The position numbers and the translations under genes are program-made. Shown here in pieces: positions 38,200-56,670 of a stretch of 64,000 nucleotides of DNA (positions within the stretch are counted from its first letter, which is position 1; every line of letters begins with the position of its first letter). A model generated the notes under the pieces. That model was not told the origin of the DNA. It saw nothing but the letters and a program-made list of their open reading frames with translations, and made no database searches. The stretch covers positions 18,977-82,976 of IMG/VR virus record IMGVR_UViG_3300037189_028117. One strand, given 5' to 3'. The DNA comes from a virus. Taxonomy: Duplodnaviria; Heunggongvirae; Uroviricota; Caudoviricetes.

Positions 38200-39501
38200 A
38201 TGACAACATTAACAGAACTAGACATTGAGAAACAAGAAGATTTATCTAAAAAAAGACTTAAGTCATTTACCCCGAAATATTCAAACTTAAATGATAGACC
38301 TGAATCAAATTTAATAGATTTAATGAATTGGGTTCAAAATACATTTAAAACTGAATTGAAAGATTCAAAACATTTAAGTAATGTCATTCACAATAAAATT
38401 GTAATTGATGGACCATTCGTTCAATTTTGCGAAGAAAATGAAATAAAAATAGAATGTTTATATAAAGATTCTTTTGCTTCTTGGAAGTCCGAAAATAACT
38501 TTGAAAGTTTCACATTTCAAGGTGTTTTTAAAATTTCAAAAGGAAATCTTGAATTTATACAATCTTCCTTATTTCATAAGGGCAATCAAAACGAAGATGA
38601 AGTTTCATATTTTATAGTTGTAAGCGATGATAAATTTCATCAATATACAAAATTAAGAAATGATTATGATAGTTGGTTAATTGCAAGAGACCGTGAAAAT
38701 CTTGAAATCCAAGTCATTGGAGGAGAGCCAATTCCATATGAAAGGAACCTTTCTTGGGATGATCTTTTCATGGAAGAATCTTTGAAAAAAGAAATAAAAG
38801 GTACGGTTGAAGGTTTTCTTAATGCAGAATCTCTTTATAAAGAACGTGGTATTCCATGGAAAAGAGGTGTTTTGTTTTTCGGGGAGCCAGGAAATGGAAA
38901 AACATCTGCAATAAGAACGATTATATCAGAATATAATTTTAAGCCAGTTACAGTTCAAAATAGCGCATCCACTAATGATGATACCATTACTGAAGCTTTT
39001 GTTTATGCAGAACAACAGGGGCCTTCATTATTATATTTTGAAGATCTAGATAGTTTGTTGCAACAAAATATTAGCTTAAGTCATTTTTTGAATTTAATGG
39101 ACGGCGTTGCATCTAAACAAGGAATTTTCATAATTGCTACAGCTAATGAACCAGGAATATTAAAGCAATCTATAACAGACAGACCTTCTAGATTTGATCG
39201 TAAATGGGAATTTAAATTACCAGATGAAAAGAGTTCTTTAGATTATTTAAAGAAGTGGTTTGGAACACAAATTAAAGAAGAATCTTTGAAAAAAGTTGCC
39301 GAAAAAACTGTAAAATATAAATTTTCTTTTTCATATTTGAAAGAATTATATATAACTGCGGCATATTCTGCAATTTCAAATAATAGAAAAACACCAAATA
39401 ATAAAGATTTATCAATTGCCTTGAAGCAATTGGTAGGAGATAAAACAAGAGCGCAAGATGGGTTTTATACAAATACAAGTGAGGAAATAGGAATAAGATG
39501 A
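38200..39501 (+). CDS. AAA family ATPase
   Basis: Walker A 'GEPGNGKTS', Walker B 'LLYFEDLD', sensor 'ATANEP'. Confidence 0.75.
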   Translation: MTTLTELDIEKQEDLSKKRLKSFTPKYSNLNDRPESNLIDLMNWVQNTFKTELKDSKHLSNVIHNKIVIDGPFVQFCEENEIKIECLYKDSFASWKSENNFESFTFQGVFKISKGNLEFIQSSLFHKGNQNEDEVSYFIVVSDDKFHQYTKLRNDYDSWLIARDRENLEIQVIGGEPIPYERNLSWDDLFMEESLKKEIKGTVEGFLNAESLYKERGIPWKRGVLFFGEPGNGKTSAIRTIISEYNFKPVTVQNSASTNDDTITEAFVYAEQQGPSLLYFEDLDSLLQQNISLSHFLNLMDGVASKQGIFIIATANEPGILKQSITDRPSRFDRKWEFKLPDEKSSLDYLKKWFGTQIKEESLKKVAEKTVKYKFSFSYLKELYITAAYSAISNNRKTPNNKDLSIALKQLVGDKTRAQDGFYTNTSEEIGIR

Positions 39502-39755
39502 GTAAAGCAACCAAAATACCAGCAACATTAGATCAAATGAGAAAGTTTTCGGCAATTGAAGCAAAACCAGCTTCTGATTCAAGAGAAGATTTTGAATATG
39601 CTTTGAGAATTTTTAAATCAATAGTTCAAAAGGAAAGAATTTTATCTCTTTATAAAGAAAAACAAAGATATGAAAAACCTTCCGTTAAAAAAAGAAGAAA
39701 GAAAATCGAAGCTTTGCAAAGAGCTAAAGAAGAAAAGGTAAAAGATGGAGAGTGA
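39498..39755 (+). CDS. rpsU: ribosomal protein bS21 homolog (with ~30-aa N-terminal extension)
   Basis: 'EDFEYALRIFKSIVQKERILSLYKEKQRYEKPSVKKRRKK' vs E. coli S21 '[40 protein letters not shown]'. Confidence 0.7.
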   Translation: MSKATKIPATLDQMRKFSAIEAKPASDSREDFEYALRIFKSIVQKERILSLYKEKQRYEKPSVKKRRKKIEALQRAKEEKVKDGE

Positions 39756-40137
39756 TAAAAAGGATTTGGTGGATCAAAAAAGGTCAAACCAAATCCCTTT
39801 TTCTGGATATAATACGGAAGTTTTATTTTCAGAAAGAGAGATTGACCCTAATGAAGAATCTTTTGAGGTAGATCAAATAACTGAACCACCTCCTCCAATA
39901 CCAGATTTTGTTGAGGAATTAACGGAAGAATCTAGCGAAGAAGATGATTTTTTATCTTTAAAATCTTTAAGTGATGGAATGTACTGTTTATTTTACGAAG
40001 ATCAACTGGTATTAAATGGAACAAAAGATAAGATAAAAAATTACTTATCAGAAGTAATATTAAATGATGTTCCCGTTGAATCATTTTCCGTTTTGAAAAA
40101 GGTAACTTTGAAAGTTGGTATTTCATTGGATGAATAA
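39745..40137 (+). CDS. hypothetical acidic protein
   Basis: ORF. Confidence 0.4.
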   Translation: MESDKKDLVDQKRSNQIPFSGYNTEVLFSEREIDPNEESFEVDQITEPPPPIPDFVEELTEESSEEDDFLSLKSLSDGMYCLFYEDQLVLNGTKDKIKNYLSEVILNDVPVESFSVLKKVTLKVGISLDE

Positions 40138-40793
40138 TGTCAAAAAAAATATCTGAAATAATAATTGAGTTGAATGATAAAACTGATAAAATTTTACAAA
40201 ATCTTGTAAATCAAGATTTATTGTTAAAAACAATCGTTAAAAGGTTGAATTCAATTTCATTATTATTAAACAATGACAAAATATCAAATAATATTTCAAA
40301 CGAAATATCTCAATTAACAGAAGAAATAAAATCAATACCATCAATTTTAACTACATCCACACACACGTACGTGGATGAAAAATCAAATGAAATTGAAGTA
40401 AAAGAAACAATACAAACCGACCCTAACCTTATTAGGGTTCCAGGAATGAAAGAAGGTATATTTCTTCATAAAGATACTGGAATTGTTCATAAAAAAACAA
40501 TTAGGGGTCAGCAATATGCTGTTCCCGTTCAACAAAAACTTTTGTATTCAGATGGAACTCCAATAACGATGGCAAATGTAGAATTATTGTCAGAAGAAAC
40601 TGGATCTTTAGTTTCTGTAAAAAAATTAAAAACAAATGCGACTGGAAAATGGACAACAAATATTCAACCAGGATCTTATGTTGTCAAAGTTTTTAAAAAC
40701 AAAAATCATAATAGAGAAGAAGTTAGGCATTTAGCGGATATAGTTGTTCCCGAAGATAAGTCAGGAACCCAATTACAGGATTTAATAATATGA
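40137..40793 (+). CDS. hypothetical coiled-coil protein
   Basis: ORF. Confidence 0.4.
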   Translation: MSKKISEIIIELNDKTDKILQNLVNQDLLLKTIVKRLNSISLLLNNDKISNNISNEISQLTEEIKSIPSILTTSTHTYVDEKSNEIEVKETIQTDPNLIRVPGMKEGIFLHKDTGIVHKKTIRGQQYAVPVQQKLLYSDGTPITMANVELLSEETGSLVSVKKLKTNATGKWTTNIQPGSYVVKVFKNKNHNREEVRHLADIVVPEDKSGTQLQDLII

Positions 40794-41185
40794 AAATATA
40801 TTTAGCTTCATATAAGGAAACTAATAATCATGGCTTTGGTAGGAAAATTTCTGTTGCTGAATCTAAACCTCCAGAATTAGATATAAAATTTATATATAAA
40901 GATTTTGTACCATCAAATGAAATAATAAATAATTATTATTTAAACAAAAATAAAAACCAAGATTTGGCAGCAAAAGCTTTTGAATTAGAGTTTTCTAAAC
41001 AATTAGATGAATTTAAAGGAAAATTATTAAAATTTTGCGAAAATAATAACAAAGAACCGAAAGAAGTTCTTCCTTTTAAAGATGGAGATACTTTATTGTC
41101 TTGGGAAAGGTTTGGTTATTCTAATTATAGAAAACCTATATCTAACCTTTTAGAATCTTTGGGTTATGAGGTGATTTTAAAATGA
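40790..41185 (+). CDS. hypothetical protein
   Basis: ORF. Confidence 0.4.
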   Translation: MKIYLASYKETNNHGFGRKISVAESKPPELDIKFIYKDFVPSNEIINNYYLNKNKNQDLAAKAFELEFSKQLDEFKGKLLKFCENNNKEPKEVLPFKDGDTLLSWERFGYSNYRKPISNLLESLGYEVILK

Positions 41186-41616
41186 GAAAAAACCCATGGA
41201 TAAAAAGAAAAGCAAAAATATTATATGGTGATTTGAATAAAAAAATAGAATCTGATGAAGAATATAGTAAACACTCTGATATTTTAAATAAAAAATCATT
41301 GGAGGCTGATGAGCTTGTTAATGATATTAATTTAATTAATGAAAAATTTATAAAAATTTCAGAAAAATTAAAAACAAAATCACCAGATCTTTTAATAGAA
41401 GCTTTGCCAATAGAAAATACAAAAGATTTTTATGATATAGAATATCATGGTAAATTAACAAAACCAACATATTCTGATTTTTCAGAATTAATAAAAACAG
41501 CCAAGGTTTTAGATAAAATATCGGTTCAAGTTGAAAAAACAGAGGAAGAAGAAAGAATCCTTAAAATTGAGCAATTAATATTAAAAATAAACAAAATATT
41601 AGAAATTAATAATTAA
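41182..41616 (+). CDS. hypothetical protein
   Basis: ORF. Confidence 0.4.
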   Translation: MRKNPWIKRKAKILYGDLNKKIESDEEYSKHSDILNKKSLEADELVNDINLINEKFIKISEKLKTKSPDLLIEALPIENTKDFYDIEYHGKLTKPTYSDFSELIKTAKVLDKISVQVEKTEEEERILKIEQLILKINKILEINN

Positions 41617-41629
41617 TTAGCATAAGTAT

Positions 41630-42067
41630 GTGATTAAAGAAGCTGAAAAACACTTTATAGATGCTTTGTTTATATTAGCTTCTGCTGGACCAAATGTTAT
41701 AATTGAGCCAGTAGAACCTATGGTACAAAAAGCTGTAGACATTTTAAAAAGAATGAATTCAAATTATTTTGATGGCATTAGTAAAATTAAAGCTAATTAT
41801 GGATCAAATGCATTTGGTTTTGTTGAATCTGGTAAAGATAAAGATCCAACAATACTGAATATTAATTTAAATAAATTAAAAGGTTTAACTGACCCTATTG
41901 AGATTTTATATCAAACAATAGTTACAATTGCTCATGAAGCAGCTCACGCCAAATCTTTTGATGAAAAATCTGGATTTGTTGGCGGAGAGTCGGTCGCAGA
42001 AGCTGAAGAAAGAAAAGTTGAACAATGGTTAAAAGCAAATATAAAACTTTTGCAGGATAATGTTTAA
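41630..42067 (+). CDS. small HEXXH (zincin-like) protein
   Basis: 'TIAHEAAHAKSF'. Confidence 0.4.
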   Translation: MIKEAEKHFIDALFILASAGPNVIIEPVEPMVQKAVDILKRMNSNYFDGISKIKANYGSNAFGFVESGKDKDPTILNINLNKLKGLTDPIEILYQTIVTIAHEAAHAKSFDEKSGFVGGESVAEAEERKVEQWLKANIKLLQDNV

Positions 42068-42433
42068 ATGTTTGAAAATATAGAACAATTATCAAAAATC
42101 TTTTATAAAGAAGCTCAAATTAAATCCATATTAATGGATAAAGATTTATTTGTTTTATTAAATGATATGATTTTTGGAACAAAACATAAATCAGAAATGA
42201 TATCAATTTTAATAAAAAATGATATTTTTCCAAAAAAAGTAAATGATAATATATATTTACTGTTTAAAACAAATGGTGTTATTTATAGAAATGTAATTTT
42301 AGACTCTTATGGTGGATATTTTATTAGATATAAAGATCCAATAGAAGTAAAAAAGCTTTATGATTCTTTGGAATTCAAAAATTTTGTTAACAACCAGGAA
42401 GCTTATGCATTATGGTCAGATAGAGTGGAATAA
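42068..42433 (+). CDS. hypothetical protein
   Basis: ORF. Confidence 0.4.
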   Translation: MFENIEQLSKIFYKEAQIKSILMDKDLFVLLNDMIFGTKHKSEMISILIKNDIFPKKVNDNIYLLFKTNGVIYRNVILDSYGGYFIRYKDPIEVKKLYDSLEFKNFVNNQEAYALWSDRVE

Positions 42434-42767
42434 CAGGGAAGATGACCCTCAGTTTAAAGAATGGTCTTTGGAAGTTAAAAAAAGAGATAATTTTACTTGT
42501 CAAATTTGTGGGATTAGAGGTGTTTACCTTGAGAGTCATCATTTAAATTCGTGGGATTGGTGCATAAAAGAAAGGTATGACATTGACAATGGCGTTAGTC
42601 TGTGCAAAGCTTGTCATCATGACAGATTTCATAAACAATATGGCTATGGCAAAAATACAAAATTTCAATATTTTGAATTCAAAAAATTAGTTGCCCTGTT
42701 CAAAACAGTAATAAAAAAAGAGATAGAGAGTTACGGCTTGAAAGTGAACAATAATAGTGATGACTGA
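42405..42767 (+). CDS. HNH endonuclease
   Basis: 'CQICG...ESHHLNSWDWC...CKACHHDRFH'. Confidence 0.7.
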   Translation: MHYGQIEWNNREDDPQFKEWSLEVKKRDNFTCQICGIRGVYLESHHLNSWDWCIKERYDIDNGVSLCKACHHDRFHKQYGYGKNTKFQYFEFKKLVALFKTVIKKEIESYGLKVNNNSDD

Positions 42768-43548
42768 TATACAAGAAATATTTAACACAATCAAAGAGCA
42801 AGAAAATTCAAAAAAGAAAATTATTGCATCAACTTCAAATAAAGTTGAAAATTTTACTTCAATTGAAGAAAAAGAAGAGAATATAAAAGTTTTCATGAAA
42901 AACATGAAAAATGATTTATTTAAAATCTTTGATGGATCAAATGGTGAAATTCAAATAGATCCATTTGATAATATTTCTTTTGTTATGGAAATTCAAGAAG
43001 ATTCAGTTCTTTCAAAAGAACACATGGAAATCACAAGATTAAGAGGTCATAAATATACAAACCTTGATGCAATTGATGGGGAAGCTGCTTTTGTATATTT
43101 AATGAACCCAATTCTTGAACACCTAAAGTTTAGTACCAGATTTTTATTGGATGGAAGATCATATAAAAATATGGGTGATAATGGAGATTTTAAATTTGGA
43201 TCTAAAAGATTAGACATAAAAACAAGACAAGTTAGATCTTCTAATTTTAGATCTAAAACAAATTTACTTATAAACGAAAGTACAATAAGTAAAAAGTTTA
43301 ATTATTATGGTCTAGTTCATAGAGAAGGAGATTCCTCTTTAGAAGGAAAACAAAGACGTTGTACATTTGTCGGAACTGCCACGCATGAAAAAGTTGTAGA
43401 AAATCCACCATTTATTATAGGTAATGGTGATGGAAGGAAAGATTTGGGTAAGAAATATGAAGTAAAAATAGATGAGTTAGATTCTCTATCTATTTTAATA
43501 GCTGATGTTTGTTTAGAATTATTCTACCGTGGGGGTAATAATCCATGA
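42757..43548 (+). CDS. hypothetical protein (263 aa)
   Basis: ORF. Confidence 0.45.
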   Translation: MMTDIQEIFNTIKEQENSKKKIIASTSNKVENFTSIEEKEENIKVFMKNMKNDLFKIFDGSNGEIQIDPFDNISFVMEIQEDSVLSKEHMEITRLRGHKYTNLDAIDGEAAFVYLMNPILEHLKFSTRFLLDGRSYKNMGDNGDFKFGSKRLDIKTRQVRSSNFRSKTNLLINESTISKKFNYYGLVHREGDSSLEGKQRRCTFVGTATHEKVVENPPFIIGNGDGRKDLGKKYEVKIDELDSLSILIADVCLELFYRGGNNP

Positions 43549-43823
43549 ATGAATATGATTTCGTAAATTTTTTAAATAATTTATTATTAATTGATGAAAA
43601 AGCTATTAGTAATTTGTTCTTACATAAAACAATAACTAATAATCAATTTGCTGATTTCGAAAATGTTTTTGTATTAGAAGATGAAAATAAAGATTGTCAT
43701 TGTTCAATTTTAGGAATTATAAATGGTTATTTAAAAAAGAATGGTTCAAAATCTATGATTACAGCTGTTTCTGCGGATGATTTGGTTATATATTTTGAAT
43801 TATCAAGTATAGATGAATTATAA
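43545..43823 (+). CDS. hypothetical protein
   Basis: ORF. Confidence 0.4.
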   Translation: MNEYDFVNFLNNLLLIDEKAISNLFLHKTITNNQFADFENVFVLEDENKDCHCSILGIINGYLKKNGSKSMITAVSADDLVIYFELSSIDEL

Positions 43824-43834
43824 GATATATTAAT

Positions 43835-44800
43835 ATGGATTGGAAAGCAAAAATTTTAATTATATTAGGTGTAGTTTTAGTTATAGCATCTTTAGGATTT
43901 ATAATAAAATACCAAAGAGATATTATAAATAAGCAATCAATTATTGAAAGTTCTTTAGTTGAGCAAAAGGAACTTGCAAATGGAATTTTGAGATCTCAAG
44001 GGTCTTATATTCTAAAAAAAGATTTAGATAATTATGCCAAATCACAAAATGTAGATTTAAAACCAATTAAAGAAGATTTAGAAAAAATAAAATCAGAAAT
44101 AAAAGGCATAAATACAATTAGGGTTATAACAAATGGTGTTAAATCAGATAATTTACCATCTGATTCTGTGATAAAAATACCGAATAATGTAAACATTACA
44201 GAAGATAAATTTAATTATTTAAAGACAACTCAAATAAAAGATATAAATGAAATATCTTCTGAACAAAAAATACCATTTGGTAAAGTTGGATTCTCTGCTT
44301 GGAAAGAAAAGCCTTGGTCAGAAGAATTGTATAAAAGAGAGTATTTTGTAACAAACACAATTTCTATAGATGAAGATGGAAGAAGTAATGTTTATAATAA
44401 GTTTTCTGTGAAGGTTGATGATAAATTTTATGATTTAAAAATAAATAAAGCTGATTATGTTGACGTTTTCCCGGAAGCAAAATTTCGCTTTTCTCCAAGG
44501 TTATATGCTGGTTTCAATGGCGGTGCTTATTTAAATCAAATTGCAGGTGAAGCTTCACCAAATTTAAAACTTTACCTATTTTCTTCAGGAAAAACAAAAG
44601 TAGATCCTAATTGGATATTTTTAGGTTTAGGTGGTGGGTATGGTGTTGTTGGGCAAAGTTTCTTGTTTAACATATCTCCTGTTGGTTATAATGTAGGGCA
44701 CCATTTACCTTTTGTAAACAACATTTTTGTTGAACCATCATTTGCTATTGATATAAATGGTAATTATGCCGTATTGGCTGGATTAGCATTTGGTTTATAA
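43835..44800 (+). CDS. membrane-anchored hypothetical protein, Gly/aromatic-rich C-terminal beta-like region
   Basis: N-terminal TM 'ILIILGVVLVIASLGFII'. Confidence 0.45.
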   Translation: MDWKAKILIILGVVLVIASLGFIIKYQRDIINKQSIIESSLVEQKELANGILRSQGSYILKKDLDNYAKSQNVDLKPIKEDLEKIKSEIKGINTIRVITNGVKSDNLPSDSVIKIPNNVNITEDKFNYLKTTQIKDINEISSEQKIPFGKVGFSAWKEKPWSEELYKREYFVTNTISIDEDGRSNVYNKFSVKVDDKFYDLKINKADYVDVFPEAKFRFSPRLYAGFNGGAYLNQIAGEASPNLKLYLFSSGKTKVDPNWIFLGLGGGYGVVGQSFLFNISPVGYNVGHHLPFVNNIFVEPSFAIDINGNYAVLAGLAFGL

Positions 44801-44817
44801 ATTATATAATTTTTTAA

Positions 44818-44846
44818 TTGAAAATGATATATAAGATAGAGATAAT
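44818..44846 (+). promoter_or_regulatory. promoter for infC (TTGAAA-17-GATAAT)
   Basis: -35 44818-44823, -10 44841-44846, SD 'taggag' 44855-44860. Confidence 0.5.
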
Positions 44847-44870
44847 TAATTAAATAGGAGAATAATAAGA

Positions 44871-45413
44871 TTGCAAAACTTTAAGAATAAAAGACCAAAT
44901 AAAATATATATACCTTATAATGATAGAATTAAAGCAACTCACGTTAGATGCATAGATTCTTCAAATGAAAATATAGGTGTCTTACCTATAATGGAAGCTA
45001 TAGATAAAGCTTTCTCTGAAGATTTAGATTTAGTTCAAATTTCTGAAGGAAAGGATGGTATACCAGTTTGTAAAATAACTGATTTTGGAAAGTTTAAATT
45101 TGAATTTCAAAAGAAACAAAAAGAGACTGCTAAGAAACAAAGAGAAGCAATTATCAAAGTAAAAGAAATAAAATTAAGACCTTCTACAGAAGATAATGAT
45201 TTAAAAATAAAAGCAGAAAAAGCTAATGAATTTATAAATGATGGTGATAAAGTAAAAATATTTATAGTATTTAGAGGAAGAGAAATGGCTCATAAAGAGT
45301 TGGGTTACGAAACTTTAAATAAATTTTTAAGTTTTATACCGGAGAAAAATGTTTATAATCAATCTTTTCAAGGGAAAATTCTATCAACAATGATAGAGAA
45401 GAAAGCAAAATGA
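44871..45413 (+). CDS. infC: translation initiation factor IF-3 (TTG start)
   Basis: 'IPVCKITDFGKFKFEFQKK..KKQ...IKVKEIKLRPSTEDNDLKIK...DGDKVKIFIVFRGREMAH' colinear with bacterial IF-3. Confidence 0.85.
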   Translation: MQNFKNKRPNKIYIPYNDRIKATHVRCIDSSNENIGVLPIMEAIDKAFSEDLDLVQISEGKDGIPVCKITDFGKFKFEFQKKQKETAKKQREAIIKVKEIKLRPSTEDNDLKIKAEKANEFINDGDKVKIFIVFRGREMAHKELGYETLNKFLSFIPEKNVYNQSFQGKILSTMIEKKAK

Positions 45414-45922
45414 TAATTACAGATATAGATAAGCTTTCGGTTTTATCAGAAGATGTAAGTCCGGAAGAAGCTCTTACTATAATTGACTTATTAGAAAAAG
45501 AATTAGAAAATTCTGCAAAGCAAGGTAGTCCAGGCATTGGATTAGCTGCGCCACAAATAGGTATAAATAAAAAGGTAGCTATAGTTAGAGTTGGTGACAA
45601 TAAAATAAATCTTGTTAATTCTAAAATAGTAGAAAAAATAATACCTTTCGAATTTGATGGTGAAGGATGTCTTTCATTCCCTGGAATGATTAAAAAAACT
45701 AAAAGGTACAAAGAAATAGTTGTAGAGAACGAAATTTATCCACACAAGTTTATTGCAACTGATTTGTTGGCAGTTGTAATTCAACACGAAATTGGTCATT
45801 GGAATAACGAACTTTTGCCTTATATAGAAGATCTTAATCCAAAAGTAAAACAGAAATTACGACCGAATGATCTATGTAATTGTGGTAGTGGTAAAAAATA
45901 TAAAAAATGTTGTGGAGCATAA
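45410..45922 (+). CDS. def: peptide deformylase with C-terminal SEC-C zinc motif
   Basis: PDF motifs 'GIGLAAPQIG', 'EGCLSFPG', 'QHEIGH'; C-terminus 'CNCGSGKKYKKCCG' = SecA-type SEC-C. Confidence 0.8.
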   Translation: MIITDIDKLSVLSEDVSPEEALTIIDLLEKELENSAKQGSPGIGLAAPQIGINKKVAIVRVGDNKINLVNSKIVEKIIPFEFDGEGCLSFPGMIKKTKRYKEIVVENEIYPHKFIATDLLAVVIQHEIGHWNNELLPYIEDLNPKVKQKLRPNDLCNCGSGKKYKKCCGA

Positions 45923-45924
45923 AT

Positions 45925-46128
45925 ATGAATGAAGAAGATGACAAAAAACTTAATAAAGACCAGATGTTAATGGTTGCTTTGATTAAAATTTCAGTGCTTG
46001 AAAAACTATTAATAGAATCTAATATAATTAGTGAAGAGGCTTATTCTAAGGCAATTAATGAATTTAGTGAAAAATTCAAATTGATTTTAGAAAGTTCGAT
46101 TCGAGAAAAGGTTTCTTCAAAACAATGA
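45925..46128 (+). CDS. hypothetical small protein
   Basis: ORF starting 'MNEEDD'. Confidence 0.35.
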   Translation: MNEEDDKKLNKDQMLMVALIKISVLEKLLIESNIISEEAYSKAINEFSEKFKLILESSIREKVSSKQ

Positions 46129-46134
46129 GGATAT

Positions 46135-46437
46135 ATGGAAAATTACAAAACAGATATTAATTTGAGTGAGGGAAAATTGGTTTTAAAATTTAATGCCGTA
46201 TGGTGCGGTGTTTGTAAATCTATGGAACCATTTATGGATAAAATGAATCAGGAATTTCCTGATATAAAAATTTACAATGTAGATATAGATGATTATCCAG
46301 AATTAACTCAAAAATTTTCTGTAAAAATGTTACCAACTCTTGTTTATTTGGAAAATGGTAATGAAACAAATAGAACAAATGGTAAAATTTTAATTAGTGC
46401 TTTGAGAAAAGCATTTAGAGATTTGCAAGAAAAATAA
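46135..46437 (+). CDS. thioredoxin
   Basis: 'VLKFNAVWCGVCK', 'MLPTLVYLENG'. Confidence 0.75.
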   Translation: MENYKTDINLSEGKLVLKFNAVWCGVCKSMEPFMDKMNQEFPDIKIYNVDIDDYPELTQKFSVKMLPTLVYLENGNETNRTNGKILISALRKAFRDLQEK

Positions 46438-46448
46438 AAGGATAAAGT

Positions 46449-46751
46449 ATGAGTCAGAAAGAAACAGACAAGCCAGTTCAAGAAAAAAGAAAATCAAAAG
46501 CAGAAATGATATGGGATAAAGTAAGCACAGTTTCGTTGGAATTGTTTTCTTTACCAAACCAATTAGTTAGTAAACATTTTGAAGTGGTATCTACTTCTGG
46601 AGATACAGTTTACTTAAAAAGTAAGACTTCAGCAGCATTTCCAGCTTTAGATGAAGCTTTAAATAGAACTTTTCCAAATAAATTTGAAGTTACTTTAAAT
46701 GGAGAAGGTTATATTTCTGTAAAAGAAAAAGAAACTGATTTTACATTGTAA
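46449..46751 (+). CDS. hypothetical protein
   Basis: ORF. Confidence 0.4.
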   Translation: MSQKETDKPVQEKRKSKAEMIWDKVSTVSLELFSLPNQLVSKHFEVVSTSGDTVYLKSKTSAAFPALDEALNRTFPNKFEVTLNGEGYISVKEKETDFTL

Positions 46752-48651: not shown

Positions 48652-48848
48652 TGCTCAAAAATAGGACTCATTTTTCAGAAGAAGATATTTTAAAGCTCTT
48701 AACTGACGAGAAAGAGGATTATAATGAGTACATTAGGCTATGTACCAAGTACAAGATACAACCAGATCCAGTAGCGACAGCGAATTTTCTTTCGAAACAA
48801 GAAGTTCTGATGAAGATTTTGGATGGGAAATTGAACCAGATACAGTAA
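48648..48848 (+). CDS. hypothetical small protein (may be N-terminal part of primase-like gene via frameshift)
   Basis: two frames co-open over ~100 nt with next ORF. Confidence 0.3.
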   Translation: MMLKNRTHFSEEDILKLLTDEKEDYNEYIRLCTKYKIQPDPVATANFLSKQEVLMKILDGKLNQIQ

Positions 48849-49414
48849 AAATTACTAACAAAGAAGTTAGTGCTTTAAATCAATCTATTTCAATTTTAGA
48901 TTTTTTAAATTCATTTGGTGTAAAATGTGAAGAATTTTATTCTCCAAGCGGTTGGAGTCATAAAGCTTTATGTCCATTCCCAGATCACAAAGAAAGAACA
49001 CCTTCTTTTCATATAAATCCAGAAGAGAATAGATTTTGGTGTTTTGGTTGCCATAGAGGTGGTGGACCAGTTAATTTCCTTGCGTTTTACAAAAACATAA
49101 ACATTTATGAAGCAGCAGATGAGCTTTTGAAAAATTCAAATTTTGATTTTTCTGACATTATAGTAAATAAATCAATCTCAGAAGAGGTATTATATAACGA
49201 AATACTTCCTTTTTCTGAAAAGATAAATTATATGTTCAAAATATTTAAAGATGAAAAATCTTTTAAATTTATAAATAATATTTGTTATAGTTTGGATATC
49301 TTTCTTGAAAAGAATATATCTAAAAAATCTCTTAATTTAGATGATATAAAAGCTAGAGTTAGCATCTTAATAGAAAAGTTAAATAAATATGAGCAAGACA
49401 TTAATAATAGGTGA
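48740..49414 (+). CDS. DnaG-type primase zinc-binding (CHC2) domain protein
   Basis: 'CPFPDHKERTPSFHINPEENRFWCFGCHRGG'. Confidence 0.6.
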   Translation: MYQVQDTTRSSSDSEFSFETRSSDEDFGWEIEPDTVKITNKEVSALNQSISILDFLNSFGVKCEEFYSPSGWSHKALCPFPDHKERTPSFHINPEENRFWCFGCHRGGGPVNFLAFYKNINIYEAADELLKNSNFDFSDIIVNKSISEEVLYNEILPFSEKINYMFKIFKDEKSFKFINNICYSLDIFLEKNISKKSLNLDDIKARVSILIEKLNKYEQDINNR

Positions 49415-50564
49415 TTTACACTTAGGAAAAGGTATATCTATTGGAAAATCTGGTTCTGGATTAAACTCTAGAATTATAGATCAATTAAATATACTAAATT
49501 GGATTTTAGAAACAGCTATAGAAAAAAATGTTTCCAGATTTATATTTACTGGAGATTTTTTTGAAGAATTAAAACCAGATCATAATTTAGTTGTTCAATT
49601 TATAAATTGGCTCAGATCATGCTCTGATTATAATATAGAAATGCATTTAATTGCCGGAAATCATGATCTAAAAAGAGTTGGCACAAGATATAGCTCATCT
49701 CTTGATATGATAGAATCATCAAATATTCACAATTGTTTTGTTCATAATAATATTTATACAATAAATTGTAATAAAGCTTCTTTCACATTAATTCCATTTA
49801 GAGATAAAAGAAGCTTATTATGTTCTTCTATTGAAGAAGCAATAGATAAGCTAAAGGGTTTGATTTCATATGAAAATTTATTTTCTGAAAAGAAAATAAT
49901 TGTTGGACATTTAGCTATAGAAAAATCCTTTTATACAGATGAAGTAGATGATGTTTCTAATGAATTAATGTTACCCGTTAGCTTTTTTGATGGATGGGAT
50001 TATGTTTGGATGGGTCATGTTCATAGTCCACAAATAATGAATAAATCAAATCCACTAGTAGAACATGTCGGAAGTATGGATTTATCTGATTTTGGAGAGA
50101 CTAAACATAAAAAAATATTAATATTATACGATTCAGAAGTTGATTCGATTGAAAGAATTAATATACCAACAAGACCATTGGTTAGATTAAAATTTGAAAT
50201 AGATAAGGATTTTGATCCAACAGAATTTCTTCTAAATGAAATTGATGCTGCTCAATATGATGGAGGTTTAAAAAACTCTATAGTGAAACTGGAAGTTAAA
50301 ATACTTAATCCTGATGCAAAATCAATAAATAGAGATTTAATTTTAAATAAATTAAAAGAATTTGGAGTATTTCATGTTTCTTCTTTTTCTGAATCAAAAG
50401 CAATAACTGTTGTTCCTACAAACAAACTTCTAGTAACTGATAATGCGATTAACTCTAGAGATGCTGTAAAGCTCATTTCAGAGGTTTTAGAGCATGAGTC
50501 AGAGGAGGACAAGTTAGATTTTATAAACGCTTGTAATTCAATAATTGAAGAGGAAAAAATATGA
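49389..50564 (+). CDS. sbcD: SbcD/Mre11-like nuclease
   Basis: 'LIIGDLHLG', 'TGDFFE', 'IAGNHD', 'GHVH'. Confidence 0.8.
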   Translation: MSKTLIIGDLHLGKGISIGKSGSGLNSRIIDQLNILNWILETAIEKNVSRFIFTGDFFEELKPDHNLVVQFINWLRSCSDYNIEMHLIAGNHDLKRVGTRYSSSLDMIESSNIHNCFVHNNIYTINCNKASFTLIPFRDKRSLLCSSIEEAIDKLKGLISYENLFSEKKIIVGHLAIEKSFYTDEVDDVSNELMLPVSFFDGWDYVWMGHVHSPQIMNKSNPLVEHVGSMDLSDFGETKHKKILILYDSEVDSIERINIPTRPLVRLKFEIDKDFDPTEFLLNEIDAAQYDGGLKNSIVKLEVKILNPDAKSINRDLILNKLKEFGVFHVSSFSESKAITVVPTNKLLVTDNAINSRDAVKLISEVLEHESEEDKLDFINACNSIIEEEKI

Positions 50565-52723
50565 AGTTTGAACCGCTATATTTAGAAATAGAAAATTTTA
50601 TGAATCATTCTTTTAGCAAGATAGATTTTAATGATTTTAATTCTTGTTTAATTGTTGGAAAAGATAATGACAATTCCAGAAAATCAAACGGTGTAGGAAA
50701 ATCTACTATATATCACGCAATAGTGTTTGTTTTATTTAATGAAGTTCCAACAAAAACAATTGATAAAATAGTTAGAGAAGGGCAGAGTAAATGCCGTGTT
50801 TCTTTTGAGTTTTTGGTTGATGACCAGAAATACAAAATAACAAGAAAAAGAAGTAATGCTTCTAATAAAATGGAAGTTTTACTTGATAAATGGAATGGCT
50901 CATGGGTACAAGAAGATAATAGAACCAAATCTGATACAGAAAAAGATATTAAATCATTATTAAAAATAAATTATGAATCTTTTAAAAATTCAGTTTTATT
51001 TTCTCAAGGTGGATTTTCAGATTTATCTGAAGGAACAAATGCTCAAAAAATAAAAGTTTTAAAAGAACCATTAGATCTTTCAATTTATTCTAAATATGAA
51101 AAAAATGCAAAGAAAAAACTCTCATCAATAGAGATGGAGTATAATACAAATAATGAATTAATTAAATCTTTAGGTGATCCTTTAAAAGATATTGAATATT
51201 GCAATGTTTCTTTAAAAGAACTTTCGGATAAATTAAAGATATATAATGAAAATTTTATTCTTTTGAAAGAAAAAATAAATCTAAAAAGAGAAAAAATAAA
51301 CGAATTAAATAAATTATTAAATTCCGATGATGCCAAAAATTCCGAACAAATAATTCAAATATCAAATAATATTAATTCTTTATTAAAAGATTCAAATGAT
51401 TTAAATGATAAAATATCAAAGTTTAATATTAAAATTAAAGATTTAAAAGAAAAAGAAAATACATTTAATTTAAATTTAAAAAACGAAAAAGATAATCTTA
51501 AAAAATTAGAATCAGAAAAATTCCCAACAGAAAATGAATTGAATGAAAAAATAAAAGAATTATCAGAATCAGAAGTTCGTGGACACAAATATATTGCATC
51601 TTTGGAATCTAAAATAGAACATTATAGCAAACCTTTGCCAAAAGGATCTAGTTGTGAACATTGTTTTAATGAGTTGGATGATAATTATAGAGAAAAGATA
51701 TCAAAGACTCATCAAGAAAAACTAGCAGATGTAAAAATAGAACTTCAAAAATCAAAAATTAAGTTAGAAAACTTAATTGAAAAAAAGGAATTTTATTTAA
51801 ATAAAATAAAAGAATTGGCAAAAAATCAATTTGCAATTAAAACGAGCAAATCTTCAATTGCAAATATTGAATTGAATATAAAAAATAATAACGATCTAAT
51901 TATAGATATAGAAAAATCTATAAAAGAATCAAATGATAATAATTTAATAATTTTAAAGAAAGTTGATGATCTTAAGGAAAAAGAATCTTTCTTAAAAGAA
52001 AAAATATCGTCATTTGATTCAAAATCAATTAATGATGATATTATTCTCTTAAATAAAGAAATCGAAAAATCGACACAAGAAGAATCTTCTTTATTTAAAG
52101 AAATAAATTTAACAAATTCTCTTATAGGTCAAAACCAATCTAAATTAGATATGAGGTCTAAAGACTTAGAGAAACTTAATGAAATTTTAAATAAAAATGA
52201 ATCTGTAAGAAGAAATCTTAATATTTACAATAAGGTTGTAAAAGCATTCTCTTCTTCAGGAATACCTACATTGATAATTCATACCATTTTAGATGATCTT
52301 CAATTTGAGGCAAATAATATTCTTCAAGAAATTAGACCAGAGTTAGAAATACAATTTCTAATTCAAAAAGATGACAAAGAAATTCTTGATATTGTTTATA
52401 AGCTTAACGGGAAAGAAAGAGACTATAAACAATTATCTGGAGGACAAAGGACTTATATATCTTTCGCTTTAAAATTGGGATTATCCGTTATAATACAAAA
52501 GAGAATGGGAATAAATTATAAATTTCTTGCCTTAGATGAAGTTGATCAAGCTTTGGATGAAGATGGAAAAGATTCTTACGTTGAAATAATTAAGAAATTT
52601 CAAGATAAATATAAAATATTGGTAATTACACATGACGCAAGATTGCAAAGTAAGTTTCCATATATATTAAGTGTAGATAACGATAAGGATAATGGAGCAA
52701 CAATAAACGTAATAAAGGATTAA
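50561..52723 (+). CDS. sbcC: SbcC/Rad50-like ATPase
   Basis: Walker A 'NGVGKSTI', long coiled coil with central 'CEHC' zinc hook, signature 'LSGGQRTYISFAL', Walker B 'LALDEVDQALD'. Confidence 0.85.
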   Translation: MKFEPLYLEIENFMNHSFSKIDFNDFNSCLIVGKDNDNSRKSNGVGKSTIYHAIVFVLFNEVPTKTIDKIVREGQSKCRVSFEFLVDDQKYKITRKRSNASNKMEVLLDKWNGSWVQEDNRTKSDTEKDIKSLLKINYESFKNSVLFSQGGFSDLSEGTNAQKIKVLKEPLDLSIYSKYEKNAKKKLSSIEMEYNTNNELIKSLGDPLKDIEYCNVSLKELSDKLKIYNENFILLKEKINLKREKINELNKLLNSDDAKNSEQIIQISNNINSLLKDSNDLNDKISKFNIKIKDLKEKENTFNLNLKNEKDNLKKLESEKFPTENELNEKIKELSESEVRGHKYIASLESKIEHYSKPLPKGSSCEHCFNELDDNYREKISKTHQEKLADVKIELQKSKIKLENLIEKKEFYLNKIKELAKNQFAIKTSKSSIANIELNIKNNNDLIIDIEKSIKESNDNNLIILKKVDDLKEKESFLKEKISSFDSKSINDDIILLNKEIEKSTQEESSLFKEINLTNSLIGQNQSKLDMRSKDLEKLNEILNKNESVRRNLNIYNKVVKAFSSSGIPTLIIHTILDDLQFEANNILQEIRPELEIQFLIQKDDKEILDIVYKLNGKERDYKQLSGGQRTYISFALKLGLSVIIQKRMGINYKFLALDEVDQALDEDGKDSYVEIIKKFQDKYKILVITHDARLQSKFPYILSVDNDKDNGATINVIKD

Positions 52724-52724
52724 A

Positions 52725-53234
52725 ATGACAAAAGAACAAAATACAAATAATCAAATTTACAATAGTCCTACTGGTGATAGTTGGGATAAGGCAGCAGAAG
52801 ATTATTGGAATCTTATAAGCACTACCTCTACTGTTATAAATACTACCTCTACTTTATCAAACACAAATTCTACTGCGCCAATATGGGTCTATCCACCACA
52901 AACTCCAACCTATGTACCTATGAGTATAGGTACATCAGCAACTTCTGCTTATGTTCACCAAGCTCAATCTAAAATAAATTTAAATAATTGCTTCTTATTA
53001 AGAAAAGTTGGTGCTGGAAAATGGAAATGTTTTCAAGCTATACATTATACTGGTTATGATGTTCATTTTTTAGATGATGGAAAGATTAGCGTTTCTGGTC
53101 TTAATAAAAAAAATATAGTAGTCAATAAAGAAACAATTAATAAAGCAAAAGAAAAAGGAATAGAAATAATAGATTCTTGGCCTGAAGAATTATTGACTGA
53201 GGATGAAGAAAATATTAAGGATATTATAGAATAA
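52725..53234 (+). CDS. hypothetical Thr/Ser-rich protein
   Basis: ORF. Confidence 0.4.
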   Translation: MTKEQNTNNQIYNSPTGDSWDKAAEDYWNLISTTSTVINTTSTLSNTNSTAPIWVYPPQTPTYVPMSIGTSATSAYVHQAQSKINLNNCFLLRKVGAGKWKCFQAIHYTGYDVHFLDDGKISVSGLNKKNIVVNKETINKAKEKGIEIIDSWPEELLTEDEENIKDIIE

Positions 53235-53254
53235 TAATAATTTCGTATATTTGC

Positions 53255-53551
53255 ATGGTATCTAAGGACATAATTGATAGTTATGTAAAAAATTTTAAAA
53301 AAAAAGGAGAGTTTCTTTTTTTTGAATATATTTTTAAATTAGGTATATCAAATATACAGAAAATACCAAATATTGATACAGAATTCTTAGATATTGCAGA
53401 ATATTTTTTTTCTCTTTACAGAACTACTGGAAATAATAACTATTTTTTAATAGGTAGATGCTTTAGAAGGGCAGCTCATAGATTAAATAGATTTCTAATA
53501 AAAAACCATAAAAAAGAAAAAAATCTGCGCTTTTTAAGGCTTATTAAGTGA
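53255..53551 (+). CDS. hypothetical protein
   Basis: ORF. Confidence 0.35.
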   Translation: MVSKDIIDSYVKNFKKKGEFLFFEYIFKLGISNIQKIPNIDTEFLDIAEYFFSLYRTTGNNNYFLIGRCFRRAAHRLNRFLIKNHKKEKNLRFLRLIK

Positions 53552-53552
53552 C

Positions 53553-54527
53553 ATGCCTGTTTTAACAATTACTATTTCGGAAGATCCAATTCAAATCATA
53601 TCAGGAATACCAAGAAGTATATCTGTTGAAACAAATTTACCTTCAACCGTTTTCTACACTTTAGATGGTTCAGATCCAACTGTTGATTCAGATATATTAA
53701 TTGGATCATTAACTTTACCAACAAATTATCCATCAATTTTATTAAAATTGTTTGCTACAAATGGCGTTGATGATTCTGGAATAATTGAAATAGAATATAA
53801 AACCTCTTGGATAGGTGATAAAAGGCCAAGAGATAAAGTTATATCTGATGATAGCGGTTGTTCCAGTGGTTGCGTTGAACCATTCACTTCCTCCTACACA
53901 GGTCCAACAGCACAATATGGAAACATGGCCGGTGTTGTTGTGGACTCGGCCGGAACCGAAGGTATACCTAACGGTTACAGGGATGGATATGTAGTATCGG
54001 AAACTGATAAGCCATATCATAGATGGAATTATGATATAGTTTATGATACAACAAACTCTATAGGTTTAAGCGGTCCTTTTATTGGTAACTTGCCAGCGAA
54101 AGTTACTTATTATAAACCTCCAACTTATAATAAATCAAATAAAGTTAATAGTTTATTATTTAATCCAAAAGCAATGGTTATCGTGCAAGATGGTAGACAA
54201 GAAAATGAAGATCCAAATGTAACTTTTTTAAATAGAAATTATTTCTCACTAAAGCCTTCGAGAGATGATTTTAGTGACTATACAACACCAGCGAACGACG
54301 GAAATCCATTAAAGGGTTCTTTTATTAAATCTTTTTATAATCAAAAAGAAAACACTTATACATTTTATTATAGAGATTTTGCAACGGATAGATGGATAAT
54401 ATCAATTGAACCTGCCTCAAAAATAAAAACAAATCCAAAACCTGTTTTGAAAGATTTTATTGCCCCAGTTTCTTTTGCTAATAAAAAAGTTTTCCAATGG
54501 GTTCCATTTCATAGAAGATACATTTAA
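53553..54527 (+). CDS. hypothetical beta-rich protein (324 aa)
   Basis: ORF; contains GC3-rich patch 53853-53985. Confidence 0.45.
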   Translation: MPVLTITISEDPIQIISGIPRSISVETNLPSTVFYTLDGSDPTVDSDILIGSLTLPTNYPSILLKLFATNGVDDSGIIEIEYKTSWIGDKRPRDKVISDDSGCSSGCVEPFTSSYTGPTAQYGNMAGVVVDSAGTEGIPNGYRDGYVVSETDKPYHRWNYDIVYDTTNSIGLSGPFIGNLPAKVTYYKPPTYNKSNKVNSLLFNPKAMVIVQDGRQENEDPNVTFLNRNYFSLKPSRDDFSDYTTPANDGNPLKGSFIKSFYNQKENTYTFYYRDFATDRWIISIEPASKIKTNPKPVLKDFIAPVSFANKKVFQWVPFHRRYI

Positions 54528-54566
54528 TTCTCTATTTAGAATAGAGTTGTTATAGAGAAAGATATA

Positions 54567-55472
54567 ATGTCAGTTTTAAAAGGAAAGTTTTTGAAAGTTT
54601 TGCCAGAGAATTATTCTCAACATTTTAAACTTTCTGTATCTAAAATTAAAACATTTGAGTCATGTAAGGCTAAGTTTTATTTTTCATATATAAAATATAT
54701 TCAAAAGAAAGAATGGGAATTCCAAATATTTGGATCATTTTTACATGAAGTTTTAGAAAGATTTGAGGAGTTCATAAAAAACGGTGATTCTTCTGAAGAA
54801 AATGTAATTATGAAAAAAGCTTTCAATAATGCTTGGAAAGCTGTACCGTTTAAAAACGGTGAAAAGTTTACAAAATGGTCAGAAAAAGTTTCCGTAGAAC
54901 AGAAGAAAGAATGTTTAACTATATTAAACAGCTACCTATCTTTAAGAAAATCTTTGAAAGAAAATGGTAATGTATCTAAAACACTGGATACAGAAAAGAA
55001 GTTTAATATTTTATTGCAAGAAAATTTATTAATAAATGGTTTTATAGATTTGTTACAAGAAGATAGTGATGGTATTTTACATGTAATTGATTATAAATCA
55101 AGTTCACATACAAAATATTTAAAGAAAGATAAGTTTCAATTACAAACATATGCTTATGCTCTTTTTCTTGAAAACCCAGAATTACAAAAAATAAGAGGTT
55201 CTTATGTTATGTTAAAACATAATTTTGAAAAAATAACATTTGAATTTACAAGAGATCAAATTATGAAATGTGAGAAAGAATTCATAAAATATTATGAACA
55301 AATGCAAGAAGAAAAGCTTTATAGACCTGAACCTGGACCCCTTTGCAAATATTGTGACGCTTTAGATTTATGTGAAGAAGGGCAAAAAAGAGTTGAGGAA
55401 GACAAGCAACGAGAAGAGAAAAAAAAGGATTACTCAATACAAAACATTGTAGTTGGTGAAAGGGAATGGTAA
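54567..55472 (+). CDS. PD-(D/E)XK nuclease with 4-Cys cluster (Cas4/AddB-like)
   Basis: 'GFIDLL', 'ILHVIDYKSS' (D...E/D-x-K), Cys at 'ESCKAKFYF' and 'CKYCDALDLCEE'. Confidence 0.65.
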   Translation: MSVLKGKFLKVLPENYSQHFKLSVSKIKTFESCKAKFYFSYIKYIQKKEWEFQIFGSFLHEVLERFEEFIKNGDSSEENVIMKKAFNNAWKAVPFKNGEKFTKWSEKVSVEQKKECLTILNSYLSLRKSLKENGNVSKTLDTEKKFNILLQENLLINGFIDLLQEDSDGILHVIDYKSSSHTKYLKKDKFQLQTYAYALFLENPELQKIRGSYVMLKHNFEKITFEFTRDQIMKCEKEFIKYYEQMQEEKLYRPEPGPLCKYCDALDLCEEGQKRVEEDKQREEKKKDYSIQNIVVGEREW

Positions 55473-55473
55473 A

Positions 55474-56670
55474 ATGATTTCAGTACAAGATATAGAATAT
55501 TGCAAAGTTAAAGTTAATTACAAGGCTGATTTAGAAAAGATCAATTCAGTAAAAAATGATATTATTAAAAATTTTAGAAACATGAAAGTGCCAGGATTTA
55601 GAACTGGCAAAGCATCTGATCAAGCGGTTTTTTATCATTACAAATCGGAAATAAATAACGCTGTCAAAAATGAATTGATAAGTCAATCAAATGACGATAT
55701 TTTATTTGAAACTAAAATAAGACCAATAGGGCAACCACAAATCAAAAGTGTATTTTTTGATGGTAAAATATTCGAGTGTGAAATTGTCTATTCAAAAAAA
55801 CCAGATTTTGAATTAAAACAATATAAAGAACTTGAGGTTGTAGATCCACATATGGATTCTTCTGTAGAAGAAATTACAGAAAGCACAATTCAAGAATTAA
55901 GAAACCAATTTTCAGAAGTTAGAGCTTATGCCGATGAAGACTTTATACAAGATGGAGATAAAGTGACCTTATCATATAAGTTTGAGGATGGTACAGAAGA
56001 AGAAGGTACTTTATATACTGTTGGATCAAACGGGTTTCCTGGTTTCGACCAAAATATATATGGCATGTCTCCCGGAGACGAAAGAGATTTTCAAATTGAA
56101 TTAAATGGTAAAGTCCAAAAATGCCATGTTCAATTTCATATGGGTATGAAAAAATCTCCAGCTGAGCTAAATGATTCTTTGGCAATAAAAGTTGGTCTAC
56201 AAAATATAGATGAACTTTATGTTAATGTAAAGGCAATGTCTGAGCAACAATTTAAAGCACAAAAAGATGCAAAGATTGCAGATCAAATTATTAAAATCTT
56301 ATGTGATTCACATGAAATTGTATCTCCAGAATGGATTGTTGAGCTAGAAGCGCAACAATTAACATTAAAAGAAGGTCAAAAGTTTAGCGAACTTGATGAT
56401 AATGTAAAAAAACATTATTTAGAAAAAGCTGAAAAAAATGTTAAATTGGCATTTATTTTAGATTCTATTCAAATGGAAGAACCAGAATCTAAAATTTCAG
56501 AAAACGAAGCTCTTCAATTAATTCACCAAAACCTAACCCAAAGAGGTATTAAAGCGCAAGAATGGATGGAGAACGCTGCAAAAAATGGAATGTTGCAAGG
56601 TGTTCTAACAAAATTCAGAAATGATTTTACCATTCAATGGTTGGTGGATAATTGTAAAAAGATTTCCTAA
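55474..56670 (+). CDS. tig: trigger factor-like chaperone
   Basis: N-domain 'MKVPGFRTGKASDQAV' (TF 'GFRKGKVP'), PPIase-like 'FPGFDQNIYGMSPGDERDF' (TF 'IPGFEDGIKGHKAGEEF'); start taken at 'MISVQD'. Confidence 0.7.
   Translation: MISVQDIEYCKVKVNYKADLEKINSVKNDIIKNFRNMKVPGFRTGKASDQAVFYHYKSEINNAVKNELISQSNDDILFETKIRPIGQPQIKSVFFDGKIFECEIVYSKKPDFELKQYKELEVVDPHMDSSVEEITESTIQELRNQFSEVRAYADEDFIQDGDKVTLSYKFEDGTEEEGTLYTVGSNGFPGFDQNIYGMSPGDERDFQIELNGKVQKCHVQFHMGMKKSPAELNDSLAIKVGLQNIDELYVNVKAMSEQQFKAQKDAKIADQIIKILCDSHEIVSPEWIVELEAQQLTLKEGQKFSELDDNVKKHYLEKAEKNVKLAFILDSIQMEEPESKISENEALQLIHQNLTQRGIKAQEWMENAAKNGMLQGVLTKFRNDFTIQWLVDNCKKIS

Follow-up and report, generated by a model that had tools for sequence, protein, structure and literature searches.

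Homologues of bS21, IF3, peptide deformylase and trigger factor are dispersed through a syntenic block of a putative Judaphage-related huge phage

The DNA analysed here, hereafter the window, is a stretch of 64,000 nucleotides of the IMG/VR virus record IMGVR_UViG_3300037189_028117 (Caudoviricetes; positions 18,977 to 82,976 of that record), in which homologues of the ribosomal protein bS21, of initiation factor IF3, of peptide deformylase (PDF), of thioredoxin (Trx) and of trigger factor (TF) are encoded on the same strand. The initial annotation, made from the sequence alone, had recognized these five open reading frames (ORFs) and described them as an uncommon, co-located translation and nascent-chain module. 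The family assignments were confirmed by profile searches: the Pfam cut-offs were passed by the S21, IF3_N and IF3_C, Pep_deformylase, Thioredoxin, and Trigger_N and Trigger_C matches, and the PDF-SEC-C architecture was recovered as well. Only S21 and IF3 are of equivalog grade, PDF, Trx and TF being divergent. The five genes are as follows.

39498-39755, plus strand: bS21 homologue of 85 residues (Ribosomal_S21, PF01165, 54.3 bits, cut-off 27)
44871-45413, plus strand: full-length IF3 of 180 residues with N and C domains (IF3_N 79.2 bits, IF3_C 84.9 bits)
45410-45922, plus strand: PDF with a C-terminal SEC-C zinc knuckle (Pep_deformylase, PF01327, 80.0 bits, cut-off 22.8; SEC-C, PF02810, 32.9 bits, cut-off 20.4)
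46135-46437, plus strand: thioredoxin-fold protein of 100 residues (PF00085, 76.6 bits, cut-off 23.5)
55474-56670, plus strand: TF homologue of 398 residues with N, reduced peptidyl-prolyl isomerase (PPIase)-like and C domains (Trigger_N, PF05697, 73.2 bits, cut-off 22.2; Trigger_C, PF05698, 27.7 bits, cut-off 22.7)

The function of bS21 is exerted at the 30S platform during initiation (PMC7797042, PMC9976891). The window protein passed the equivalog model TIGR00030 (42.1 bits, cut-off 28.95), its residue 29 was aligned onto chain residue 9 of bacterial bS21 and the RYEKPSVKKRRK motif is present. With its 85 residues and an N-terminal extension of about 20 residues, it is the short form of the protein; in relatives (loci L059-L087), S21 displays a strongly basic N-terminal extension of 40-55 residues (e.g. 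MKDQNRRSKRNYKKAPKGGE...) together with a C-terminal extension. At its start, the gene shares 4 nt with the stop end of the AAA+ gene that precedes it. Families for S21, IF3 and PDF exist already in PHROGs.

IF3 also works at the 30S platform in initiation. In the window IF3, the N domain spans residues 17-85 and the C domain residues 95-173, both above the Pfam cut-offs, and the protein passed the equivalog model TIGR00168 (158.5 bits, cut-off 60) and matched phrog_9787 (E 9e-50). The nearest named IF3s are proteobacterial, with 45-51% identity. No in-frame ATG precedes the N domain and the gene starts at a TTG located 10 nt past an AGGAG, and its end overlaps the PDF start by 4 nt. The IF3 genes of L057, L058 and L074 likewise lack an ATG before the N domain and start at TTG (possibly ATT in L057), and in these three as in the window gene an AGGAG or TAAGGAG precedes the start by 8-10 nt; ATG is the start codon of more distant copies (L061, L083, L071).

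The three catalytic motifs of PDF (GIGLAAPQ, EGCLS and HEIGH) are all present in the window protein, and GxGxAAxQ, EGCLS and HExxH are invariant among the orthologues in alignments of 11 and 30. The deformylase is predicted to be catalytically intact. The catalytic core (residues 1-135) is followed by a short linker and a C-terminal knuckle, C156-N-C158-GSGKKYKK-C167-C168 (C156-x-C158-x8-C167-C168, or CXCX8CC), which fits the CXCX8C(H/C) ligand motif and is invariant among the PDF orthologues compared. In the AlphaFold2 model (predicted local distance difference test, pLDDT, 91.7), a standard PDF core is predicted, and it was matched by Foldseek to bacterial and cyanophage PDFs (E ~1e-11). The last helix of the model is the HExxH helix (118-129); residues 144-147 form a low-confidence disordered linker, the knuckle has a pLDDT of about 87, and the C-terminal alpha-helix of type 1B enzymes is not present in the model. 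It is this helix that reportedly, from work of Bingel-Erlenmeyer in 2008, anchors E. coli PDF to the ribosome. In SecA, the metal-binding domain with a CXCX8C(H/C) motif interacts with SecB and sediments together with 70S ribosomes (PMC6620043). By analogy, the SecA-type zinc knuckle of the window PDF probably keeps the enzyme close to the ribosome (or SecB).

The CXCX8C(C/H) tail was detected in at least 51 of the 92 viral PDF ORFs examined, including lineages devoid of the window synteny; among the 120 best metagenomic PDF homologues, almost all carry it. In a search of 185,579 cellular species genomes (one genome per species), none of the best 80 matches was a close PDF-SEC-C fusion, the best of them reaching only 39% identity and lacking the tail; the tail alone, used as query in cellular genomes, matched unrelated proteins. 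The fusion is thus apparently virus-enriched. Tails of the form ...GRN[DE]PCxCGSGKKYK[KR]CC were also seen in other viral lineages lacking the window synteny (L088-L105, L130), and a close homologue (P0098) lies on a 383-kb contig that was binned as a Chitinophagales metagenome-assembled genome (MAG) and is probably a mis-binned phage.

The active site of the window Trx, WCGVCK, keeps both cysteines, the proline of the WCGPC type being replaced by valine. Both cysteines have been lost in 23 of the 32 distinct orthologues (WCxPCK becoming WM-PYHK; loci L017-L087), and CxxC is retained only in the window and its nearer relatives. Because these 23 orthologues lack both cysteines, the conserved role of the gene in the lineage cannot be disulfide reduction, and the loss suggests that in most of the clade this role does not depend on redox activity. 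In PHROGs, the family is filed under DNA, RNA and nucleotide metabolism. Nothing was found to tie this protein to translation, where the initial annotation had placed it, and the gene is a neighbour and not a demonstrable translation component.

The TF gene (start 55453 or 55474 in the ORF list, end 56670) starts 2 nt past a Cas4-like nuclease gene. The profile of its family matched E. coli TF (1w26) with an E value of 4e-38 over the N, PPIase and C domains, and the only strong Foldseek matches of the AlphaFold2 model (pLDDT 87.9) were the TF structures 3gty, 2vrh and 1w26, full-length and with E ~1e-20. In the ribosome-binding loop PGFRTGKAS, residues G41, F42 and R43 are invariant and G45 and K46 nearly so among 23 family members; the last proline of the GFRxGxxP signature is replaced in the phage protein. 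The 23 members, all metagenomic, display 29-98% identity compared with at most 27% for cellular TFs, and no phage-type TF was found in the 185,579 cellular species genomes. The protein also matches phrog_26774 (E 9.5e-22), labelled 'unknown function', which looks like an annotation gap in PHROGs.

To recover related loci, alignment-based scans of IMG/VR were required, since single-protein scans with TF or IF3 returned nothing or one locus. The TF-family alignment yielded 52 viral loci and the PDF alignment 80 more, onto which the window proteins were mapped by local phmmer. One gene order is shared by 48 loci centred on TF and 29 centred on PDF, which, with 8 contigs common to both, represent about 69 distinct IMG/VR contigs of 17-481 kb. 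This order is topoisomerase IA, AAA+, S21, o40137, ..., (IF3), PDF, (orf), Trx, o46449 and o48202, then primase, SbcD, SbcC, o53255, CHB-domain protein, Cas4-like nuclease, TF, small ORFs and DnaE. Of the 29 loci centred on PDF, 24 have a detected S21, 26 a Trx-fold gene after PDF and 22 a TF, the other seven stopping before the TF position; the TF-DnaE order is kept in all the TF-centred syntenic loci. Just five of the 29 have IF3 immediately before PDF, an adjacency confined to the nearest relatives, and IF3 is a movable addition. The five genes are not chance ORFs: in orthologues from dozens of viral contigs, with 30-60% identity, the catalytic and signature positions are maintained. The invariant PDF motifs, the CXCX8CC tail and the G-F-R of TF are indicative of purifying selection.

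The same layout was found in published genomes. Huge phages have been described to carry IF1, IF3, an N-terminally extended S21 and PDF, and an interception or redirection of host translation was proposed for their S21, IF3 and PDF (Al-Shayeb et al. 2020, Nature 578:425; PMC7162821). In the supplementary GenBank files of that study, 'Trigger factor' is annotated in several genomes, as are PDF, S21 and IF-3 (PMC7162821). Three of these genomes have the same layout as the window:

SR-VP_PHAGE_40_16: TF 300196-301455, PDF 309179-309703, S21 312007-312414
GD_PHAGE_CIR_35_878 (437,772 bp, circular): TF 361499-362746, PDF 352160-352687, IF-3 293741-294271
BM_PHAGE_CIR_35_55: TF 315915-317162

In GD_PHAGE_CIR_35_878, the Cas4-like nuclease, TF and DnaE are genes 542, 543 and 547, the terminase and major capsid protein are genes 572 and 593, and IF3 is 58 kb away from PDF; its TF is 32% identical to the window TF over 332 residues. 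Table S2 of the same study places these genomes in the 'Judaphage' clade (PMC7162821). Membership of the Mahaphages, suggested by tree neighbours, was rejected on the basis of this table, in which the relatives are called Judaphage. Judged by gene content and order, the window genome is a distant new member of the described Judaphage-related huge-phage lineage. These results agree with a viral origin, the gene order matching IMG/VR viral contigs and Judaphage genomes provided with terminase and capsid genes. They do not agree with an uncommon co-location: the same arrangement is the rule in the about 69 IMG/VR contigs and recurs in several published genomes, and the set of translation genes is on this comparison a hallmark of the lineage. 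At the nucleotide level, positions 39000-57000 had no match in GenBank phages (megablast, 50,697 records), and no tblastn match of TF or DnaE reached 33% identity, most of them lying in unannotated faecal contigs or likely host contamination.

The five genes are surrounded by the following features.

36267-38189, plus strand: topoisomerase IA (Topoisom_bac, 385 bits)
38200-39501, plus strand: YjoB/Cdc48-D2-like AAA+ ATPase (AAA, 65 bits; best PDB match YjoB, 7w42, E 2e-38)
42360-42767: HNH endonuclease ORF between S21 and IF3
45907-46128, plus strand: ORF of 73 residues between PDF and Trx
48740-49414, plus strand: primase zinc ribbon (Pfam match)
49389-50564, plus strand: SbcD (Pfam match)
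50561-52723, plus strand: SbcC (Pfam match)
53553-54527, plus strand: CHB_HEX_C-domain protein (Pfam match)
54567-55472, plus strand: PD-(D/E)XK/Cas4-like nuclease (Pfam match)
57707-61306, plus strand: DnaE-type DNA polymerase III alpha (PHP, DNA_pol3_alpha, finger and HHH_6 domains)

The topoisomerase IA and AAA+ genes form a pair directly upstream of S21, and the order of the three is repeated in relatives. DnaE comes three small ORFs downstream of TF. The HNH ORF, possibly a mobile insertion, would help to account for an S21-PDF spacing that exceeds that of most relatives. For the 73-residue ORF no significant family match was found, and it was detected in few relatives only (L022, L065, L068, L070, L087). 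Profile searches of the unassigned ORFs of the 39.7-57.7 kb region revealed no additional translation gene; only the HNH endonuclease, the primase zinc ribbon and a weak CarboxypepD_reg match were new.

The GC content of the window is 27% and its GC skew is positive over the whole 64 kb. With genetic code 11, 104 non-overlapping plus-strand genes give a coding density of 96% and TAG is a rare stop (6 of the 104 genes), which ruled out an alternative genetic code. A GGAG/GAGG/AGGA core lies 5-20 nt upstream of the start in 27 of the 104 genes (26%), compared with 7% at random positions. A Bacteroidia host, with Shine-Dalgarno-blind ribosomes and an rpsU-like autoregulation of S21, was considered and set aside although this 26% usage fits: many genes of the clade have a Shine-Dalgarno sequence, the nearest IF3s are proteobacterial and the S21 starts of the relatives are not reliably placed. 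No tRNA, tmRNA or Rfam element was detected across the window, which contains neither rRNA nor ribosomal proteins other than S21, and about half of its ORFs have no family match. An identical genome occurs in two public samples, and the identical IF3 (P0161) is encoded on a contig of 171,650 bp. The 10 kb past the window contain the genes of RecA, of RuvC, of a full-length DnaJ, of a Toprim primase and of a sigma-70 region-4 protein. Other features of this genome are listed below.

812-1282: NUDIX hydrolase
3997-6836: MoxR-type AAA+ with a DUF2201 metallopeptidase/VWA protein
19328-19948: ClpP (195.6 bits)
22153-23157: FtsK/SpoIIIE-like ATPase
30434-32932: YqiJ/NfeD-like and SPFH pair
34362-35411: alanine dehydrogenase/PNT-domain protein (phrog_25893 match)
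L218 6974-7942, about 7 kb past the window end in the same genome: full-length DnaJ

The MoxR/VWA pair, ClpP, SPFH, the YjoB-like AAA+ and DnaJ form a wider proteostasis complement of the genome. Upstream, a tRNA/RNA-repair-style set (1493-2332, 12223-13398, 28419-29312, 35443-36273, 8931-9650 and 10-819) includes a Thg1-like tRNA-His guanylyltransferase, an Rnl1-like RNA ligase, a nucleotidyltransferase, two metallophosphatase/PNK-like proteins and, at the window edge, a fragment of an ATP-dependent DNA ligase. The only convincing minus-strand gene of the window is a Dps/ferritin-like gene (8353-8880).

Taken together, the window probably belongs to an early/replication block of a Judaphage-related phage, through which host-derived genes are dispersed. 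An action on host ribosomes is what we reasonably infer, and it has already been proposed in print for S21, IF3 and PDF of huge phages; the timing and the benefit to the phage are put forward in the same conditional way. The gene products would most likely act one by one. The phage bS21 variant would occupy the 30S platform, and the phage IF3, placed beside PDF only in this sub-lineage, would supplement or bias initiation. The zinc knuckle would keep PDF near emerging chains, and TF probably docks on uL23 at the exit tunnel via its GFRxGK loop and shields phage nascent chains. ClpP, the AAA+ proteins and DnaJ would back up these translation and folding helpers. In this way, translation and folding of several hundred phage proteins would be sustained through a long infection, once the host supply fails.

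Several observations weigh against this interpretation. PDF, Trx and TF all fall below their NCBIfam equivalog cut-offs (TIGR00079, 83.1 bits against 103.95; TIGR01068, 70.1 against 96.8; TIGR00115, 169.7 against 180.2 although the alignment spans positions 2-410 of 410), so their functions may be altered. The PPIase-like region of TF, which aligns to the E. coli PPIase domain in a shortened form, scored 15.3 bits for FKBP_C against a cut-off of 21.1; some members of the phage TF family do score for this domain (PF00254). The SEC-C knuckle could bind SecB or another partner instead of the ribosome. As to the host, the nearest named IF3s are proteobacterial, a related contig is binned as Chitinophagales and a Shine-Dalgarno core precedes 26% of the genes. 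Finally, the 64-kb window yielded no gene for capsid, portal, tail or terminase, and because structural genes are absent from it the viral status rests on synteny with relatives.

The initial annotation had gone further in reading the genes as one discrete module. A part of this stands, since IF3, PDF, the small ORF and Trx are contiguous and IF3 and PDF overlap; S21 and TF, however, lie apart, each abutting a replication or AAA+ gene. Between S21 and IF3 lie about 10 ORFs, the HNH endonuclease among them, and between Trx and TF about 13, among them primase, SbcCD and the Cas4-like nuclease. Synteny extends over the entire block of about 25 kb, so that co-location is a poor guide to functional coupling, and the genes are co-inherited within one syntenic block and not organized as one operon. 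An integrated and co-regulated five-gene module building phage-specialized ribosomes, with bS21 and IF3 marking the 30S subunit for phage mRNAs and a ribosome-tethered PDF and the phage TF holding the exit tunnel of the same ribosomes, is unlikely in our estimation. It would be compatible with the common strand, with a block order conserved over deep divergence, with the 4-nt IF3/PDF overlap, with the presence of TF and PDF together on one ribosome in bacterial complexes (PDB 7d80, 6j45) and with the ribosome binding of the SecA-type knuckle (PMC6620043). Against it stand the some 23 unrelated ORFs interspersed (primase, SbcCD, nucleases and HNH endonuclease among them), the poor information carried by adjacency in such a block, the absence of IF3 from its position in 24 of the 29 relatives and its remoteness in a published one, the redox-dead Trx of most relatives and the coupling of S21 and TF to non-translation genes. 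A related reading, a dedicated 'exit-tunnel kit' in which the knuckle-anchored PDF and the phage TF replace or displace the host nascent-chain factors, possibly on ribosomes marked by bS21 (and IF3), would amount to a virus-built specialized ribosome and appears quite improbable to us. If it were true, the PDF-SEC-C fusion would be a virus-enriched invention, no close cellular counterpart having been found among the best 80 matches in the 185,579 species.

That the Trx-fold protein serves nucleotide or DNA metabolism, as a reductant of ribonucleotide reductase or as a redox-independent structural subunit, and not translation, can be held tentatively at best. In the second role it would resemble host thioredoxin, which is the processivity factor of T7 DNA polymerase. 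The gene lies between PDF and the primase-SbcCD-DnaE genes, and the PHROGs category points the same way. The 23 WM-PYHK orthologues keep their position and fold-level similarity, which argues for a structural role; the window copy, on the other hand, retains both cysteines, the search of the window for a ribonucleotide reductase gave none and the constant place right after PDF could reflect co-translation with it. Two further explanations concern the origin of the genes. A reduced cellular genome (symbiont or candidate phyla radiation, CPR) or a megaplasmid bearing translation genes would explain the window devoid of structural genes and the Chitinophagales MAG label of a related contig, and some large plasmid-like elements do carry translation genes (Al-Shayeb et al., PMC7162821). 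We consider it very improbable: the same block is present on the IMG/VR viral contigs and in published circular phages, where terminase and major capsid genes lie 25-50 genes downstream of DnaE, and the window bears genes of the tRNA-repair and anti-restriction type, as large phages typically do; the lack of rRNA, tRNA and other ribosomal proteins, the half of the ORFs without family match and the failure to find the phage-type TF in the 185,579 cellular species genomes likewise speak against it. It is scarcely credible that the genes are recent host-derived passengers without selected phage function, even if each has clear cellular homologues and IF3 is close to its proteobacterial counterparts, given that diverged orthologues keep motifs, TF signature, zinc ligands and positions across many environments and that all the cellular sequences found stand apart from the phage TF and PDF-SEC-C families.

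The reading of dispersed genes acting one by one refines a known picture, since translation factors of huge phages were published in 2020 (PMC7162821). Among 8 million full texts, no paper discussing a phage trigger factor or a PDF-SEC-C fusion was found. Three points appear undiscussed: the conservation of GFRxGK in a phage TF family, the exchange of the PDF helix for a SecA-type knuckle and the lack of a close cellular PDF-SEC-C among the best 80 matches. Proteins for the two ends of the ribosome are a stable heritage of one huge-phage lineage, S21 and IF3 on the decoding and initiation side and PDF and TF at the exit tunnel. The TF family and the virus-enriched fusion of PDF with a zinc knuckle are the parts most worth experiment, and the questions raised are testable: whether the knuckle tethers a viral deformylase to the ribosome, and whether a viral TF binds uL23 and chaperones phage proteins.

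In comparison with Judaphages (GD_PHAGE_CIR_35_878, GD_PHAGE_CIR_35_52, SR-VP_PHAGE_40_16 and SR-VP_PHAGE_32_29), the window has in common the order Cas4-like nuclease, TF, small ORFs and DnaE, a PDF about 9 kb from TF, an S21 about 3 kb beyond PDF and the N-terminal extension of S21. It differs from them by its GC content (27% compared with 35-40%) and by an IF3 placed directly upstream of PDF. In the published files both the Judaphage TF and the SEC-C tail on PDF are either annotated or can be made out, yet the main text leaves them undiscussed (PMC7162821). With respect to bacterial bS21, the window protein likewise passes the equivalog-level model and differs by its N-terminal extension of about 20 residues. 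The infC gene typically starts at AUU; the window IF3, of equivalog grade like bacterial IF3, begins at TTG after a strong Shine-Dalgarno sequence.

The C-terminal metal-binding domain of SecA (PF02810) and the window PDF share the CXCX8C(H/C) motif and the basic flank KKYKK, but the knuckle is fused to a translocation ATPase in SecA and to a deformylase here. The PDFs of cyanophage S-SSM7 (3uwa) and Vibrio phage Vp16 (5mtc) have in common with it a compact core, the three motifs and the absence of a long C-terminal helix; the linker and the CXCX8CC knuckle are added in the window PDF and its relatives, and the solved PDFs matched align only within the core (up to query residue ~157). The phage TF shares with E. 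coli Tig (1w26, 2vrh) the three-domain architecture, aligned over E. coli residues 26-418, a matching predicted fold and the GFRxGK loop. It differs by an identity of about 20%, a sub-equivalog score, a shortened PPIase domain and a signature ending in A-S and not V-P, and by its genomic context: the phage gene adjoins a nuclease and DnaE, whereas the bacterial gene adjoins clpP-clpX.

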